Positions 7,212 through 18,150 of a DNA stretch of 54,910 nt are shown piece after piece. Every line of letters starts with the position of its first letter. Within the stretch, counting starts at the first letter, position 1. The notes below the pieces were generated by a model. The model worked only from the letters and a program-made list of their open reading frames with translations. It was not told the DNA's origin and did not search any database. Made by a program: the position numbers and the translations under genes. The stretch comes from Promethearchaeati archaeon (GTDB lineage Archaea; Asgardarchaeota; Heimdallarchaeia; JABLTI01), in assembly GCA_013166835.1 (NCBI GenBank), contig JABLTI010000007.1, positions 1-54,910 of the forward strand. The letters are read 5' to 3'.

Positions 7212-8279
7212 TCATTTTTTCTTCTTGCTGTCGATTTGTGCTTGAGCAATTTTCTGGAAACCGATAGCATTTGCTAATACAGGATCTTCCGGGACAATTA
7301 CCTCTTCTGGTGATTGTACTACATTGTTTTCGGTTAGAATATTTTTCATTCGTTCACCAAAGACTTCAGCACCGCCACCAGTTAGAATGACTTTTTCAAT
7401 CCAAGCATCGGGTGGGAGGGTACCAAGTAAGGTTGATAATTCATCCACTATGATGTCTGCAATTGAATTGACATAATAAGTGAGGGTTTCAGAAATATCA
7501 TATTGCTCTCCTGCTACCATTACATTCTTTCTTCCAATCTCTATGGATTTTATCAATTCAAATGGTCGCAAAATCTTCCCTGTTTGCTGATTCAAGTTGC
7601 TAGCAATTCTTTCAGCAAGGGTTGTTATTGATTCTTGTACACTTCCACTTGCTGTTCGCATTAGTCTACCTTCATAAACAGTAAGAATATTTGTTGCACC
7701 AGCTCCGATATCCACAACTACTGCATCAACTGCTCTTTGTTCACCAGATGATTTCAGGATTTCATAATAAGATCCATAACAAACTGGCATTACTAAGCAT
7801 TGGTCTATCTTAAGGTTGATTTGTTTTTCTTCCCCTGTTGCATCATTTGCAACATTTATTGTCATAGCTCCTTTCAGACCCTTACTTAAAGTTACCATTT
7901 CATCTTGAGGACTAGCAACTGGCACTCCAGTAGCAACTATAAAATTACCATAGTCCTTTTCTACGAAATTCGAAAGAGCTGCTTTTATTGCTATGATTGC
8001 ATCTTTCAAGCTTTTCATTTTACCTTTATCTGCTAATGGTCGTTTTATTTCGCTTTGTAATCTTGCTAATTCTCCTACGAAATATTTCTTCCCATCATCA
8101 GTTTGTAGCATAAGATTATTTATCCAAGATTTATCAGTCCCTAATCCTTTCCATCCAGGATTTGGATCACCAACTAAACTTGGAATTTTTATAATCTTTT
8201 TACCACCAGGTCCTACTAGTTTTGTTATGCTCGTACCAAGATCTATTCCGATTGCCATTGTATCGCTTTTTTTGGACAA
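7212..8279 (-). CDS. ParM/StbA-like actin-fold ATPase
   Basis: Phosphate-1 IDLGTSITK, VGELA, TGVP, phosphate-2 VDIGAGATN, adenosine ILTGGGA, DP..ANA.G. Confidence 0.85.
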   Translation of the reverse strand: MSKKSDTMAIGIDLGTSITKLVGPGGKKIIKIPSLVGDPNPGWKGLGTDKSWINNLMLQTDDGKKYFVGELARLQSEIKRPLADKGKMKSLKDAIIAIKAALSNFVEKDYGNFIVATGVPVASPQDEMVTLSKGLKGAMTINVANDATGEEKQINLKIDQCLVMPVCYGSYYEILKSSGEQRAVDAVVVDIGAGATNILTVYEGRLMRTASGSVQESITTLAERIASNLNQQTGKILRPFELIKSIEIGRKNVMVAGEQYDISETLTYYVNSIADIIVDELSTLLGTLPPDAWIEKVILTGGGAEVFGERMKNILTENNVVQSPEEVIVPEDPVLANAIGFQKIAQAQIDSKKKK

Positions 8280-8371: not shown

Positions 8372-9733
8372 CTATTGCCCAGCCCGAGGTGTTCTTTGTC
8401 TTCTCCTAGGTCGTCTTCGTTCTGTTTCCTTCTCTTCAGATACTGGGTGAATAATGGGTCTTTGTGCTATTGCTTCCATTCTTCTTGTTGCTCTTTTTTG
8501 GATAAATTGAACAATTAATCCAACGAGTAAGAATAGAACTGCCAAGGGAGCTAAAACCATCATAATCATTTCTGGTTGTCCAGCTTCAATACTATTAATG
8601 ATTGAATCAGGCATATTGAGAAATTGCAGGATTGGTAATGGATTCAATGCAAGCCAGGAAAGTAACAATAATGCTACCATTCTAAATAAGGTGCCTGAGG
8701 TTATAATAAGAATTAATCTAGCCAATGATGGAGTATATGCTGAGGCTGATAATGACACAGCAATCATTGGATCATCTCGTTCAAGTTGCTCGTAATAACT
8801 CTTGAGACGATTATTCATTTTGTCCCAATCCTCATCAGGTGAAATTCTAAACAATTTCTTTCCAACTAAGCCTTTTATTCTTGAGAAAGCTGTACTTACA
8901 GTCATTCTAGCCCTTGACGTGTTTTTACTACCTCGTATACCCATTCTTTCAGGTTCTTCTTCTTCTGTTTCCGGTCTTTCTTTTTTCATTCTCTCTAAAG
9001 GCATCTTGAATTCTCTTATTCTCTTAATATTGCTTGAGATTCTCCTATGTCTATGGATATTAGGACCTATTACATTGTACACGTAACTGGCCTGAAAACT
9101 CAATTCCAATGAGAAGTAAATTAGGAAAGCAGTAATTACTAATTTCGAGAAAATCATTTGAGTGATATTTCCACTACCAAGGTCTATATCAATAAGCAAT
9201 TTCCCACTTAAAGATGCTAAACCAAGAACTATATTCATTCCAAAAAAGGAAACTGCCGATAGTGCGGGATTACATTCTCGTAGGAATCCTAAACCAGCAA
9301 TTAGTGCAATAAATAAGATAATCATAATGAAGAAAGAATAAAGTGGTTCAAAGAGATTTGGTTGAGCAAAAAATTCTAGCGGTTGTAATATAATTTGCTC
9401 AATTTCTACTCCCATGATGGTATCTCCTCCTCCAAAAATTGCTGAATGAAAACTATCCATTAATGCTACAGCTCCAGAATCATCATATCCGAGCATATAG
9501 GCAATTCCATAACCAATTAAGAGAAATAAAATCTCAAAAATGAAGACAAAGAATTTCAAACTATACCAGAATGATTGGAAATTCCAAATGGAAGTATCGA
9601 TTGAGGATATTACTAGCGCAAAACTAGCTATGAAAACTAGAGCAGCAAATACTCGAGTCATGTTTAGGAGATTTCGCATCTTCCTTACTTTATCTGCTTC
9701 AACTCTGGTACCAATTACTTCAGACAAGACCAA
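8372..9733 (-). CDS. Multi-pass membrane protein, hypothetical
   Basis: About 7 hydrophobic helices; overlaps the DUF58 gene end. Confidence 0.75.
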   Translation of the reverse strand: MVLSEVIGTRVEADKVRKMRNLLNMTRVFAALVFIASFALVISSIDTSIWNFQSFWYSLKFFVFIFEILFLLIGYGIAYMLGYDDSGAVALMDSFHSAIFGGGDTIMGVEIEQIILQPLEFFAQPNLFEPLYSFFIMIILFIALIAGLGFLRECNPALSAVSFFGMNIVLGLASLSGKLLIDIDLGSGNITQMIFSKLVITAFLIYFSLELSFQASYVYNVIGPNIHRHRRISSNIKRIREFKMPLERMKKERPETEEEEPERMGIRGSKNTSRARMTVSTAFSRIKGLVGKKLFRISPDEDWDKMNNRLKSYYEQLERDDPMIAVSLSASAYTPSLARLILIITSGTLFRMVALLLLSWLALNPLPILQFLNMPDSIINSIEAGQPEMIMMVLAPLAVLFLLVGLIVQFIQKRATRRMEAIAQRPIIHPVSEEKETERRRPRRRQRTPRAGQ

Positions 9734-13792: not shown

Positions 13793-16234
13793 TTAGGTTA
13801 CTTTAGGATCTTGTTTTAGAGCTAACTGCACATTTTCCAAGGCTTGCATAGCATGATTAAATTGATTTTTAGTAATTCTGTGATCACTAAATCGTGCTTC
13901 TTCATATCGCATTACAAGCATTGTGACATCACGAACTGGTATGCGGTTTGTTGATGCGACTAATCGAGCAAGCTCTCGAGGAGATTGATCTCGAGCACTT
14001 AAAATCCTTAGATTTTGCATGCACATTAACTCAAAAGCTCGAAAGCTAAGGACTATCCCTCTACGATAATCTTTTGCTTTATCAGCTTCAGCAATCTGCT
14101 TCATAATAGAAGGCAGATCCATTAATTCAGCATCTGGATCTGGTAGAATTCCTTTCTTTGATTTCCTAAACCGACCAAATGCATACACAACTGAAACAAT
14201 GATTATGAGTGAAACCATTGCAATTAAAATACCTATTACAGCCATATCAAATCCTCCTGGTTCTGTTGGTGAGGAAGTTCCTCCGTTAGTGGTTTCTACT
14301 GGTACCGCGAGAAATGTAATGTCGAAATTGAAATCGTAGCTCGTATCAGCATCAAAGGTTATAGTAATTGTGTATAAGGTATCGTTCGTATACCCCAATG
14401 ATTGATTAATAGCTATACTGAAATAACCACTATCATTGAGAGTTTCACCAATGGAGCCTAATCCACTAATAGATATTGTAATGGTTCTACTTTTTATTGG
14501 TCGACCAAATTGATCCATTACAAATCCATTAAATGTTAAATTCGAATTAATATAGATAGATTCTCCTCCAATTGTCGTAATTTCTGAGTCATCTATTACT
14601 ATTGTTGAGTTTAAAGTAATAGTATACACAGCTTCTGTAAAGACATCTACTAGAAAACTGTAGTTGGAGGGAGTATAATATTGATTACTAGATGAAAATA
14701 AATTAACTGTTCCATTTCTTAAAGTTGGATTGACTGTTGACGGAATGAGTAAACTAATTAAAAATGCACCTGTTGGAGAGGTATAAGTTTCGTATACCAA
14801 TCCAGACCCTTCCCATTGAGCTGATATGTTCATGTTTGCAACAGCCGCACTACTATAAGCATCGCTTATGGTACCTGATATTTGCAGCGTTTCATTTGGC
14901 ATAGCAAAGGGATATTCAAAAAGAACTGAAGTGCCATTAACTGAAGGAGTTAGTATTGTGGAATTTCCTAAAACAGTGATATATTCCGTTTCAGTTATAG
15001 CAGTTATCCCTTGACCTGTATCAACATCCACGGTTATCGAATTGTCACCGACGGGTAAGTTTGTTGCATTTATTATGAAGGAGATACTAAAATTACCATT
15101 ATTCTCTGTGGTAACACCTATTGTAGGTGAACCCGCAACAAAGACAGTTAGATCAACACTATAACCAAATGGACTACCACCACTATCAGATAAAACACCT
15201 GATAATGTAACTGTAGTATTACCTCGAACTACTTCAGGATAAAATCCAATACCTGGTGCAACAGGTTCGTCTATATCAAAAACAAGACCCGCCCCTGTGT
15301 ATATGAATATATTTGTCGTGACATTACACCAATCTGCAGCACTAGTTCCAAGTTCAGCTTCAGTTATTATGTTTCCTACCGTATACGCTAAACCTAACGT
15401 GCTAATATTAAATGATCCTTCTAGAGGATGATCAACTCCGATAGTGGTACCCATTGGAACAGCTAGTATTGTTGCTGCAATATCAGCAATAATTGCAATA
15501 TTATAGAGTGACCCTAACCAATCAAAAGTAATATCATGACCATTGGCATCTGAAACGAATTGGGGATCCAGAACTGTAGAATTATCAAATAGTAAACCAG
15601 CTACCACTGAAAATGAATCACCTTCGCGAACAATGGTGGTATTTATTACCATACCCATCTGAACTGTGGCATAACATTCAATGGTATCTGTTGTATATTG
15701 ACGATTTAGTTCTATTGGTCCAAGAAGTGGATCGCCAGGGAAAACAGCATAGACTGTGACTAATCCTACTCGTTTTGAATGATCATTATCTACACAAGTT
15801 ATTGAGAAATTACCATTGCTATCTGTAATTCCTTCACCTACCTTGAAATTATTATCCAGATTGGTTCTGTCTGTCTCTAAATCAATCCAAGTGAAATAGC
15901 TCCAATAAATCCAGATGGGTTCATTTGGTATTCCTTGTAAAGTAATTAAATCAATGAGTCTACCTCTAACAACAAAAGATCGACCTCGAAGAATAACTGC
16001 TGGGGAAATGCTTTCGGGATTGAGACTATCAGGTTTTTGTGATATTTTCTCTTTTGGTCCGTCTGCTGAGATAGTAGCAATTAGATGTGTAACTACTTCG
16101 TGGTTCTCGTTCGTTTTCAATGGAGTAGTGAAATCTGTTTCTGGTTGATTTAGTGTTAACTGAATTAGAGATACAAAAGTAATTGAAATCAAAAGTAAAA
16201 ATATAGCAATTAGTCTTACTTGAGATTGTTTCAT
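13793..16234 (-). CDS. Large membrane-anchored beta-rich protein with C-terminal DUF4129
   Basis: Signal/TM after MKQSQ (start 16234 preferred), Ig-like repeats, TM, SPRE...YEEARFS motif. Confidence 0.8.
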   Translation of the reverse strand: MKQSQVRLIAIFLLLISITFVSLIQLTLNQPETDFTTPLKTNENHEVVTHLIATISADGPKEKISQKPDSLNPESISPAVILRGRSFVVRGRLIDLITLQGIPNEPIWIYWSYFTWIDLETDRTNLDNNFKVGEGITDSNGNFSITCVDNDHSKRVGLVTVYAVFPGDPLLGPIELNRQYTTDTIECYATVQMGMVINTTIVREGDSFSVVAGLLFDNSTVLDPQFVSDANGHDITFDWLGSLYNIAIIADIAATILAVPMGTTIGVDHPLEGSFNISTLGLAYTVGNIITEAELGTSAADWCNVTTNIFIYTGAGLVFDIDEPVAPGIGFYPEVVRGNTTVTLSGVLSDSGGSPFGYSVDLTVFVAGSPTIGVTTENNGNFSISFIINATNLPVGDNSITVDVDTGQGITAITETEYITVLGNSTILTPSVNGTSVLFEYPFAMPNETLQISGTISDAYSSAAVANMNISAQWEGSGLVYETYTSPTGAFLISLLIPSTVNPTLRNGTVNLFSSSNQYYTPSNYSFLVDVFTEAVYTITLNSTIVIDDSEITTIGGESIYINSNLTFNGFVMDQFGRPIKSRTITISISGLGSIGETLNDSGYFSIAINQSLGYTNDTLYTITITFDADTSYDFNFDITFLAVPVETTNGGTSSPTEPGGFDMAVIGILIAMVSLIIIVSVVYAFGRFRKSKKGILPDPDAELMDLPSIMKQIAEADKAKDYRRGIVLSFRAFELMCMQNLRILSARDQSPRELARLVASTNRIPVRDVTMLVMRYEEARFSDHRITKNQFNHAMQALENVQLALKQDPKVT

Positions 16235-16400
16235 ACTTACAACCAGGTCTAACGCCACCAGTATTTTTCTATATCTGAAAAGGGAGGTCATCTTATTTAT
16301 TAATTGTCAAATCTGCATCTATGAAACGTATGAATTTCTACTAAAAAAAGTAGCTCTTATTTCTAGTTTAGCATTGAATAGTAGTTTAACAATTTGAAAG

Positions 16401-16693
16401 TAAACCGTTAGATGGTCGGACTAAGCACCAGAATAAAGAGTAAGGGCTTAGGATTCGACCATCTAATTAACACGATAACACATGGTTTGGCATTCTAGGA
16501 CTCATCTAAATTGTGCTACAGTGTTCCGGCTCTTAACGCCTCCTCTTAAGCGAGCACCATTCTCTTCTCTCGGGTATTTAGAAGATTTCTCAAGGAACCT
16601 AGTGGTTCTATAAGCACTTTACCCGCTGTTTGAAGTGCTTATCCAAAGTCCATTCTTGAGTGTACTCTTCGAGGACACGAGAAGCGTGAGTAG
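16401..16693 (+). ncRNA. Candidate structured non-coding RNA of unknown family
   Basis: 44% GC by hand count in AT-rich intergenic DNA; at least 8 nested helices plus CGGGTA/TACCCG loop complementarity; G-U pairs favour the + strand; followed by T-rich tract. Confidence 0.6.
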
Positions 16694-16921
16694 TTTTATT
16701 TCAATTACTTTTCTCTTCTCTACTCAACTAGTTATACTATTTCTATTAAAGATTTTCCTTCGACAATTCCCTTGTTATTGTTCTCTAGTCTCTCTTGTTT
16801 TGGTAGGTGCACTAAAAACTTACACTTACAGTCTCATGTAAGACAATTACAAATATTTATATACTACTTTTGTGTAACTTAAGTATAGAAAAATGTAACA
16901 TTTGATTGGAATGAGGAAAAA

Positions 16922-17017
16922 ATGCCAGACAAGAAAAAGAAAATCAAAGAACAAGTAAAGAAAGATATTGAGCTAACCCGAATTAGAATGGCTTTAATTG
17001 CGGGTGCTATAAACTAA
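16922..17017 (+). CDS. Small 31-aa ORF MPDKKKKIKEQVKKDIELTRIRMALIAGAIN (not in ORF track)
   Basis: GAGG SD-like motif upstream of ATG; ends 26 nt before the regulator gene. Confidence 0.45.
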   Translation: MPDKKKKIKEQVKKDIELTRIRMALIAGAIN

Positions 17018-17043
17018 GAAAACATAAGGAGTGTTTTTTAAAA

Positions 17044-18150
17044 ATGTCAAAAAATAAAGATAAGAGAAAAAAGGAACTCGAAAAAGAGATGGCGAAACTT
17101 CGCAAAAAACTTGAGTTACTTGACGACGATGATGAAGAGGTCAGATTTGATCCTTTCACTGGTGAATCACTAAAACACACAATGCCACCTTTACCTCCAA
17201 AACCCCCATTAATTGCCAAACCAGCTAAACCTGTAAAACCAGTAAGAATAATCAGACAAGACAGACATGGTAAACCCATTGTAGTCCGTCAAGCAGAACT
17301 CACCCCAGAGCAGAAGAAACGCATTGCCAAAGAAAAAGAGCTCATTAGACAAAAGAAGGAAAAACTCAACGAAGAACTTCACAAAATGAGAGATGATTTT
17401 GTTGATAAGCAAAAAGAATTTCAAGAGCAACAACGCGAATATCAACATATCCAAAGAGAGCTCCGTGAAAAAGAACGTGAAATAAGAGAGAAGGAACGAT
17501 CTCTCCGCAATCAACGAAAAGATTACAGTTATACTTGGGATTTGGATATGAATGAAGATATTGAAGGAGTAACTTCAGATTTAGAAGTAAGACTTGGTGA
17601 ATATACTCGATCAATTCTCGCTTCAGTTGCTGATAGTATTAAATCTTCAATGGGAATCGCAATCAAAGGTGCAGGCAATATTGGACAAGAAATGAAAGTT
17701 GTTGGTAAGGAAATGGATAAAATTGGCAAGGAAATCGGCGATAAAATCGCTAAAGAGGTTCATGCCAGTGTAGGTCCAAAAATTCCTGTTGATAAACTTG
17801 AGGAATTCTATGAAGTTGGAGCAACTATTGTCTCTGCAATTGGTGACCCAAATAGATTACGTATTCTCAAAGAACTCGAAAAGAGTCCAAAATACCAAAA
17901 GGAACTTAGCGATATTACTAATCTTCGTGGTGGAACTTTCAAACATCACATGGATCGACTTCTAGAAGATGACGTCAAGTTTGTTACTCAAGAAGTTGTT
18001 CGTGGTCGTTATTTGTTAACGACTCGTGGCCGTGAAGCTTTGAAACTTACCGAAATTCAATTCATGAGATATCTTAGTGAAAAGAATCACAAGAAGAAAG
18101 GTAAGAAATCTGAAGATTCCGACGATGAATACGATGTTAGCATAAAATAA
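17044..18150 (+). CDS. Coiled-coil protein with C-terminal ArsR-like winged HTH
   Basis: D.NRLRILKEL, KHHMDRL, RGRYLLT.RG; GGAG SD. Confidence 0.75.
   Translation: MSKNKDKRKKELEKEMAKLRKKLELLDDDDEEVRFDPFTGESLKHTMPPLPPKPPLIAKPAKPVKPVRIIRQDRHGKPIVVRQAELTPEQKKRIAKEKELIRQKKEKLNEELHKMRDDFVDKQKEFQEQQREYQHIQRELREKEREIREKERSLRNQRKDYSYTWDLDMNEDIEGVTSDLEVRLGEYTRSILASVADSIKSSMGIAIKGAGNIGQEMKVVGKEMDKIGKEIGDKIAKEVHASVGPKIPVDKLEEFYEVGATIVSAIGDPNRLRILKELEKSPKYQKELSDITNLRGGTFKHHMDRLLEDDVKFVTQEVVRGRYLLTTRGREALKLTEIQFMRYLSEKNHKKKGKKSEDSDDEYDVSIK

Follow-up and report, generated by a model that had tools for sequence, protein, structure and literature searches.

A structured RNA gene confined to one family of Heimdallarchaeia, with a core found in apparently circular form

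Introduction

In a 54,910-nucleotide stretch of contig JABLTI010000007.1 from a Promethearchaeati archaeon (hereafter the window), positions 16401-16693 lie between the MoxR operon and a divergent winged helix-turn-helix (wHTH) gene, a placement upheld by a Pfam scan of the neighbors. An initial annotation, made from the sequence alone, proposed that this interval specifies an unannotated, highly structured RNA of about 290 nt, read from the plus strand and carrying a kissing-loop pseudoknot. The question raised by the locus is whether such an RNA exists and, if it does, from which strand, between which ends, and in what form it is made.

Asgard archaea are the closest prokaryotic relatives of eukaryotes, and to our knowledge few structured RNAs have been described from them beyond rRNA, tRNA, SRP RNA, RNase P RNA, and guide RNAs, so that a further candidate adds to a scarce set. 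The bacterial RNAs OLE, GOLLD, ROOL, and raiA are large structured noncoding RNAs (ncRNAs) that came out of comparative genomics and whose function is still unassigned. Our searches of the literature returned no description of an RNA at the present locus. We report that it contains a genuine structured RNA gene that had not been described before and is confined to one family of Heimdallarchaeia, and we discuss the evidence that its 220-nt core is cut out and closed into a ring. The features of the locus are collected in table 1.

Table 1. Features of the locus in window coordinates; RNA features are given on the minus strand, from which the RNA is most likely read
Feature	Position	Strand	Description
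BRE/TATA-like box	16741-16758	minus	Purine-rich hexamer, then T/A-rich octamer
5' leader	16685-16720	minus	Outside the ring; starts with purine box GAGAAG (16720-16715)
Core	16465-16684	minus	220 nt; one metatranscriptome shows 16684 joined to 16465, closing a ring
P0	16691-16687 with UGAGU of the invariant loop	minus	Leader side ACUCA; can pair
P1	16673-16679 with 16537-16543	minus	7 pairs, 6 with compensatory (double) changes; 95.5% paired (plus 91.0%)
P2	16662-16667 with 16552-16557	minus	6 pairs; 92.3% paired (plus 83.3%)
P5	16633-16642 with 16610-16619	minus	6 double-change pairs; 92.9% paired
P6	16580-16585 with 16563-16568	minus	2 double changes; 97.4% paired
Kissing loop (plausible)	16621-16625 with 16571-16575	minus	Loops of hairpins P5 and P6 (span 16563-16642)
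P7	16513-16524 with 16470-16481	minus	Encloses the invariant loop (span 16470-16524); 11 pairs, 4 with double changes and 4 with one-sided changes of G.U type; 91.6% paired (plus 81.5%)
Invariant 23-mer	16484-16506	minus	GAUGAGUCCUAGAAUGCCAAACC; inside the large loop closed by P7
Hairpin H-A	16408-16466	minus	Just 3' of the ring; 21 pairs, 11 with double changes; 85.7% paired (plus 81.3%)
T7 run	16343-16349	minus	Inside a small hairpin (16338-16353)
Operon beside the element		minus	DUF4129/CarboxypepD_reg membrane protein, DUF4350, MoxR AAA+ ATPase, DUF58/VWA
ArsR-type wHTH gene		plus	Divergent from the MoxR operon

Results

Copies, Conservation, and Distribution

The GC contrast noted for the interval was confirmed, with 43.7% in 16401-16693 and 26.8% and 27.5% in its flanks. 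The element occurs as one copy per genome, and both its own genome and the window are free of tandem repeats of it. In a blastn comparison with 60 related genomes, it was recovered from nine of the 11 other genomes of the same family, at E values from 1e-150 to 7e-17, and the best value among the 49 genomes of other families was 0.024. A covariance model of the core, R1, matched the own genome and nine of the 11 family genomes (E from 1e-29 to 1e-53) and, in a search with stricter filters, none of the 71 genomes that represent the other six families of the class. In the two family genomes without a match the region is not assembled, since the neighboring gene is cut there by the end of a contig.

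After removal of duplicates the copy set consisted of 14 distinct sequences, 13 of them full length, and it is to these 13 that the alignment counts refer. They represent about six lineages, so the covariation counts given below should not be read as numbers of independent events. All 13 share, letter for letter, a block of 23 nucleotides (GAUGAGUCCUAGAAUGCCAAACC), which is found without mismatch in 10 of the 12 family genomes. Allowing up to three mismatches, 388 other genomes of the phylum yielded four matches, each with three mismatches, which is about the chance expectation. Homologs of the element, sought across Asgard genomes by blastn, by the 23-mer scan, and by the covariance model, were thus found in one family only.

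A scan of two public collections with 21 bases of the 23-mer returned nine genome contigs and six metagenome contigs. By title, seven of these genome contigs belong to Heimdallarchaeota, and the remaining two are labeled Promethearchaeati and Bathyarchaeia. The one labeled Bathyarchaeia (L042, DATKZI010000039.1, 111 kb) bears an element identical to those of L013, which belongs to a genome of the window's genus, and of the metagenome contig L051, and it is probably mis-binned or mislabeled.

Nucleotide identity to the window ranges from 56% to 95% over all copies. The distant copies retain 56-67% identity together with the invariant block, beside a neighboring DUF4129 protein with 37-51% amino acid identity, and when these distant copies are compared, conservation begins and ends at about 16453-16689. 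Mean pairwise identity is 0.69 in the core, 0.64 in the hairpin H-A, 0.47 in the leader, and 0.44 in the trailer.

Strand and Consensus Fold

The element had been proposed to be read from the plus strand. The consensus fold, the pattern of G.U pairs, a BRE/TATA-like box, and the folding z-scores all point the other way, to an RNA that is most likely read in minus orientation. For the 13 copies, RNAalifold gave -37.4 kcal/mol on the minus strand, with a covariation term of -4.63 and 59 pairs, 29 of which show compensatory changes, as against -22.2 kcal/mol, a covariation term of -0.89, and 45 pairs on the plus strand. A structure of 64 pairs was built from the well-kept helices of the minus-strand fold; it is 91.1% paired on the minus and 85.0% on the plus strand, with covariation scores of 0.316 and 0.240. 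Double changes affect 32 of its pairs, compared with about 15 in shuffles, none of 500 shuffles reaching the observed value, and slid controls are only 34-45% paired on the minus and 31-43% on the plus strand. Considered alone, the ring is 92.9% paired and has 23 double-change pairs versus 10.5 +/- 2.1. Within the 64-pair structure, 70 alignment cells are G.U on the minus strand, hence A.C on the plus strand, and 22 show the reverse, a count that is biased because the structure was itself taken from the minus-strand fold. The z-scores of single-sequence folding are modest throughout: for 16395-16700 they are -2.00 (plus) and -3.29 (minus), and for the 220-nt core they are -2.63 on the minus strand, where one of 200 shuffles folded as well, and -1.00 on the plus strand, where 29 of 200 did.

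A plus-strand ncRNA ending at the T-rich tract after 16693, as first envisaged, is in our estimation very unlikely. The helices found by hand all exist in the window, and as a whole that structure is about equally well paired on both strands (79.8% plus, 78.4% minus). It is also far from random: when the partners are slid by one to three columns, plus-strand pairing falls to 32-43%, and its 21 double-change pairs exceed the 10.8 +/- 2.1 of shuffles, a number reached in none of 500. The helix TAAACCG/TGGTTTG (69% paired on plus, 55% on minus) and one change in copy L049 are exceptions that favor the plus strand, on which the T-rich tract does come next. Nevertheless, the plus-strand consensus fold is far weaker, the supported helices show A.C where the minus strand has G.U, and on the plus strand 29 of 200 shuffled sequences fold as well as the core. 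Even among the supported helices of the hand-made structure itself, three of the four are better on the minus strand. No conserved or promoter-like motif was seen upstream of the element on the plus side of the alignment, and in the conserved box at 16741-16758 the BRE lies to the minus side. Helices found by hand can therefore point to a real RNA and still suggest the wrong strand.

Individual Helices and the Kissing Loop

Eleven pairings had been listed for the element, and a re-check of the sequence found all their segments in place and complementary as described. Comparison among copies divides them: four are supported by covariation, five lack support, one is conserved without being informative, and the kissing loop is plausible on weak evidence. 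The 13-bp helix and its continuation CTAAGC/GCTTAG, counted together as one helix of 19 pairs, show 10 double-change pairs; the 10-bp ATAAGCACTT hairpin has six, and TTCT/AGAA two. The support for CTCAAG/CTTGAG, in the form of compensatory changes, is limited to its inner part, and TTCTC/GAGAA, at 93.7% paired, is so nearly invariant that it is neutral. The unsupported pairings include TAAACCG/TGGTTTG, which has no double change; ACTCAT/GTGAGT, which as a plus-strand helix has one pair unpaired in nine of the 13 copies; the GCTC-TTAA hairpin (73% paired); and GAACC/GGTTC (56% paired), all four being poorly kept.

Three strongly covarying helices, P1, P2, and P7, had been missed, all of them long-range or enclosing, and a large part of the covariation resides in them. 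P1 and P2 close a 5' domain of the ring (16537-16679), and P1 takes up the loop of the GCTC-TTAA hairpin. The leader can form a further short helix, P0, with the invariant loop: its five core pairs are paired in 60 of 65 alignment cells on the minus strand versus 49 of 65 on the plus strand, and its leader side varies between C and U opposite an invariant G.

As for the pseudoknot, proposed on the basis of the complementary loop segments CGGGTA and TACCCG, five base pairs are kept in 11-12 of the 13 copies, but the alignment holds no double-sided change. The loop-loop pairing is 90.8% paired on the minus strand, where one of its pairs is U.G in nine copies and U-A in four; on the plus strand the same pair is a C.A mismatch in nine of 13. 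By eye, copy L019 retains the pairing after a shift of register and the exchange of a C-G for a U-A pair, giving UGGGU/ACCCA, and copy L018 lacks the pairing. A kissing interaction is thus plausible, with weak support from this comparison of sequences.

A Circular Joint in a Metatranscriptome

Thirteen public RNA runs contain part of the stretch, nine of them in small shares, and the contigs of the other four (X1-X4) were compared with the window. Each of the four has contigs on the element, although contigs as such reveal neither strand nor true ends. One contig of X1, 250 nt long and without a single difference from the window, runs from 16545 to 16684 and then continues at 16465 to 16574. 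Its first 30 nt are identical to its last 30, so that its length corresponds to 220 + k-1. In an assembly graph with k=31, a closed cycle of 220 gives a contig of 220 + 30, which requires reads that span the joint. At the joint itself, where 16684 is followed by 16465, the two sides share no letters. The contig, one from one run, indicates a 220-nt circular RNA.

Instead of the single unit of about 290 nt suggested at first, the element therefore appears as a 220-nt core (16465-16684) and a separately conserved flanking hairpin (16408-16466). All 13 copies have an equivalent of the core, 203-223 nt long. P1 and P7 each stop 5 nt short of an end of the ring, and both ends of the ring lie where conservation stops when distant copies are compared. 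In X1 the ring contig has a depth of 33.2 and two gene contigs have 6.7 and 8.7, values that cannot rank genes; no X1 contig covers 16254-16464 or 16685-16928, and this absence carries no weight.

The foremost alternative, though an unlikely one, is that the RNA is a linear minus-strand ncRNA of about 300-370 nt and that the X1 joint arose by template switching of the reverse transcriptase, by an assembly error, or as a minor by-product. The joint was seen in one contig from one of the four compared runs, and the linear contigs of close relatives pass straight over the 3' cut site (16427-16673 in X2 and X3; 16396-16595 plus 34 nt in X4), which implies that those libraries contain linear forms, precursors, or DNA. 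In addition, H-A lies outside the ring and yet is nearly as conserved as the core and strongly covarying, as would fit a part of the mature RNA. Against this alternative, the contig has the form of a closed cycle, with a length of exactly 220 + 30 nt and identical 30-nt ends, and the joint links, without shared letters, two positions that are at once domain borders and ends of conservation.

It could also be asked whether the ring is an intron-like by-product of excision, the product being the leader joined to H-A, or H-A alone. Stable rings made from excised archaeal introns are described in the available text of one study (PMC12558985), and H-A is conserved and covarying. On the other hand, conservation is strongest within the ring, where the 23-mer lies, and the leader reaches only 0.47. 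No 16685-16464 joint was present among the contigs, which can miss one, and no bulge-helix-bulge (BHB) motif was found. Among the explanations considered here, we hold this one to be the least probable.

Flanking Signals and Processing Sites

Upstream of the ring, on the minus strand, a regular expression for a purine-rich BRE followed by TTT[AT]4 matched 11 of the 13 copies at 57-75 nt from the first ring base, and the two others, L052 and L018, have AT-rich boxes there by eye. Going by the archaeal consensus, we take the box at 16741-16758 to be a putative promoter. About 22 nt past it comes the purine box GAGAAG, at the distance where an archaeal start would be expected, and transcription may begin at this box, near 16720. 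In 10 of the 13 copies a purine box precedes the ring start by 22-37 nt; the closest one in L018 is 14 nt away, and L049 and L017 are without one. Beyond H-A and before the next gene, nine of the 13 copies possess a run of at least five T, and four do not. In the window, the corresponding T7 run is likely an archaeal termination signal for the primary transcript.

The 5' cut (16685|16684) falls 2 nt past the 5-bp helix P0, and the 3' cut (16465|16464) falls at the base of H-A. The position of the cuts beside these two helices, together with the conservation of H-A and the pairing kept in P0, suggests that leader and H-A act as processing signals; H-A is probably such a signal or part of a linear form. 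A search of the alignment by eye for a processing stem between leader and trailer revealed short complementarities in single copies and no conserved pairing. Nor was a BHB found at the cut sites, which lack a 4-bp helix flanked by 3-nt bulges, both registers tested by hand having failed; duplexfold of the two 40-nt site contexts gave -9.1 kcal/mol at best, with large loops.

The genome itself, which is 85% complete, contains RtcB and two matches to the EndA family, and a match to an Rnl-type ligase was not found in it. The EndA-family matches are open frames of 198 and 70 amino acids on two other contigs of this genome (G000, C115 and C96), and they may represent a two-subunit splicing endonuclease. 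A broader substrate range has been reported for endonucleases of this type in the accessible part of one source (PMC5829648). The sites could conceivably hold a relaxed BHB-like motif that is cut by an EndA of broad specificity.

The Neighboring Operon

The gene order around the element is identical across the 12 other loci. The DUF4129 gene is downstream of it in all 12 and the wHTH gene upstream in 11, the twelfth ending at a contig edge. Since the whole neighborhood is collinear within the family, the linkage between element and MoxR operon is uninformative. The RNA and the DUF4129 protein have the same distribution, both being confined to the same family (f1).

A 27-nt block at 16292-16318 and an AT-rich box at about 16260-16279, both within 16256-16322 on the minus strand, are kept in 13 of 13 copies and are probably the operon's own promoter or operator. 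The most likely start of the DUF4129 gene is a conserved GTG at 16258 (minus) rather than the ATG at 16291 given in the list of open reading frames, because relatives do not keep the latter; at the later ATG, one relative has ATA. One DUF4129 homolog (L093, G001:C237:3377-5806) has a single in-frame TGA. On the other side of the element, the wHTH reading frame (17044-18150, plus strand, 368 amino acids) probably starts downstream of 17044, given that the proteins of relatives align only from residue 33-111, and a short reading frame with a good ribosome-binding site begins at 16923. The row of genes with MoxR and DUF58 has at its far end a gene (7212-8279, minus strand) for a protein with an actin fold (MreB-like_C, ALP_N), and a 453-amino-acid reading frame without a Pfam match (8372-9733) adjoins this gene.

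A regulatory leader was one of the options raised at first. Such a cis-acting leader or attenuator of the DUF4129-DUF4350-MoxR-DUF58 operon would be transcribed from the upstream promoter and control read-through at the T-run, and the element is indeed co-oriented with the operon and directly upstream of it in 12 of 12 loci, shares its restriction to family f1 with the DUF4129 protein, and in four of 13 copies is followed by no run of at least five T between H-A and the operon. We nonetheless regard a leader as quite improbable. Collinearity of the family on both sides leaves linkage with little to say, and a second promoter-like block (16292-16318, minus) with a conserved start region stands between RNA and gene in every one of the 13 copies. 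With respect to riboswitches, no Rfam aptamer matched, the promoter-like block precedes the gene in 13 of 13 copies, and a T-run is present in nine of 13. No known leader family matched either, and a leader would not be expected to occur as a ring.

Known RNA Classes and Coding Potential

The element is, as had been suspected, an unannotated, conserved, and structured ncRNA without a match in Rfam. Against Rfam 15, no match was found at the gathering score anywhere in the window, and at E<=10 the interval 16250-16950, searched on both strands, gave only three chance matches with E>1. The earlier failure to recognize SRP RNA or RNase P RNA in the element was well founded: archaeal SRP RNA (RF01857) is absent here and present as the genome's own copy on contig C107 (110.5 bits), and RNase P RNA (RF00373) is likewise absent here, with its own copy on contig C163 (109.2 bits).

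Further candidates were rejected. ARAGORN found no tRNA or tRNA-like gene in 15500-17500. A C/D box sRNA does not fit, with UGAUGA in four of the 13 copies and CUGA in six, at inconsistent positions. As a guide to rRNA, the 23-mer formed duplexes of -18.3 and -19.4 kcal/mol with 16S and 23S rRNA, compared with shuffle medians of -18.7 and -19.7 (200 shuffles); the rRNAs were those of the relative G009, the genome of the window having no assembled rRNA genes. Complementary targets of the ring in its own genome, sought by blastn-short, amounted to chance-level matches of 12-17 nt, and a complementarity of 6-7 bp, seen by eye, between CCACC of the ring and GGUGG in the start region of the DUF4129 gene was also judged to be at chance level. 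In relatives, a 43-codon reading frame on the plus strand keeps neither its ATG nor its frame, as judged by eye, and the longest stop-free runs on the ring are 38 codons (minus) and 44 codons (plus). Of the known small self-cleaving ribozymes, none (hammerhead, twister, pistol, hatchet, HDV-like, or hairpin) had an Rfam match on either strand at E<=10, and a GAUGAG...CCAAAC stretch lacks, by eye, the CUGA and GAAA core of the hammerhead.

Discussion

The explanation that we favor, and consider reasonably probable, is an independent minus-strand ncRNA gene whose 220-nt core is cut out of the transcript and ligated into a trans-acting ring. Conservation, covariation, restriction to one family, and the X1 joint are observations; strand, transcript ends, enzymes, and function are what we infer beyond them. 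Transcription would start at about 16720, behind the BRE/TATA-like box (16741-16758), and produce a leader of about 36 nt, the 220-nt core, and the conserved hairpin 16466-16408. The transcript would end at a T-run in most copies, in the window at 16349-16343. The core would then be excised between 16685|16684 and 16465|16464 and its ends would be ligated, probably by RtcB, into the 220-nt ring. The ring is predicted to fold into a closed 5' domain, formed by P1, P2, and two hairpins whose loops possibly kiss, and a P7 arm. This arm would display the invariant 23-nt loop, which a protein or another RNA would likely contact, and the ring would, in our view, act in trans as a stable component of a ribonucleoprotein.

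A bolder possibility, which we consider rather unlikely, is that the element belongs to a new, BHB-independent class of archaeal circular RNAs and is cut by itself or by an as yet unknown nuclease, with the ring as the core of a lineage-specific ribonucleoprotein. Self-cutting would call for an undescribed self-cleaving motif centered on the invariant 23-nt loop and on P0, the helix of the leader. If this were true, a ring formed without a BHB would be the core of a ribonucleoprotein in the archaeal group nearest to eukaryotes.

Returning to the favored explanation, an excised and ligated core would have parallels among archaeal RNAs. Rings are known from C/D box sRNAs, SRP RNA, RNase P RNA, and the omega RNAs of IS200/IS605 elements, and some of these ncRNA rings have no BHB at their junction (PMC12558985, available text). 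None of the archaeal species named for rings in that same text belongs to the Asgard group. The element resembles these rings in that a longer transcript would be processed into a small RNA before its two ends are joined. It differs from them in having no conserved C/D boxes, in being neither SRP RNA nor RNase P RNA, and in the absence of a transposase among the neighbors scanned with Pfam. By its sequence and predicted structure it is a new family, as the lack of an Rfam match attests.

The large structured bacterial RNAs OLE, GOLLD, ROOL, and raiA offer another comparison. Like them, the element exceeds 200 nt, shows covariation over several helices, may contain a pseudoknot, and has highly conserved loops; unlike them, it is archaeal, limited to one family, apparently circular, and without a sequence or model match in Rfam. 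It offers a family of 220 nt for further study, with strong covariation, an apparently circular form, an invariant loop, defined ends, and a structure that can be tested.

With the BHB-dependent rings, that is, those of tRNA introns and of pre-16S and pre-23S rRNA, the element has in common the RNA ring and a genome that encodes EndA-family proteins and RtcB. In contrast to these rings, it has no BHB at its cut sites and no tRNA is present; of the features of this class, the end-to-end junction was found, in the one X1 contig, and the bulge-helix-bulge was not. The lack of an evident BHB raises the question of how archaea circularize RNAs outside the route of tRNA splicing.

Circular 16S and 23S transcripts have been reported in Asgard archaea, according to the accessible part of the source (PMC12918454). 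As a separate observation on the rRNAs of relatives, the 23S rRNA matches in genomes G005, G006, G008, and G009 (L069-L072) span 3259 to 4282 bases, compared with 2987 positions of the model. Those of G005 and G006 extend more than 1 kb beyond the model, which suggests large insertions, either expansion segments or introns.
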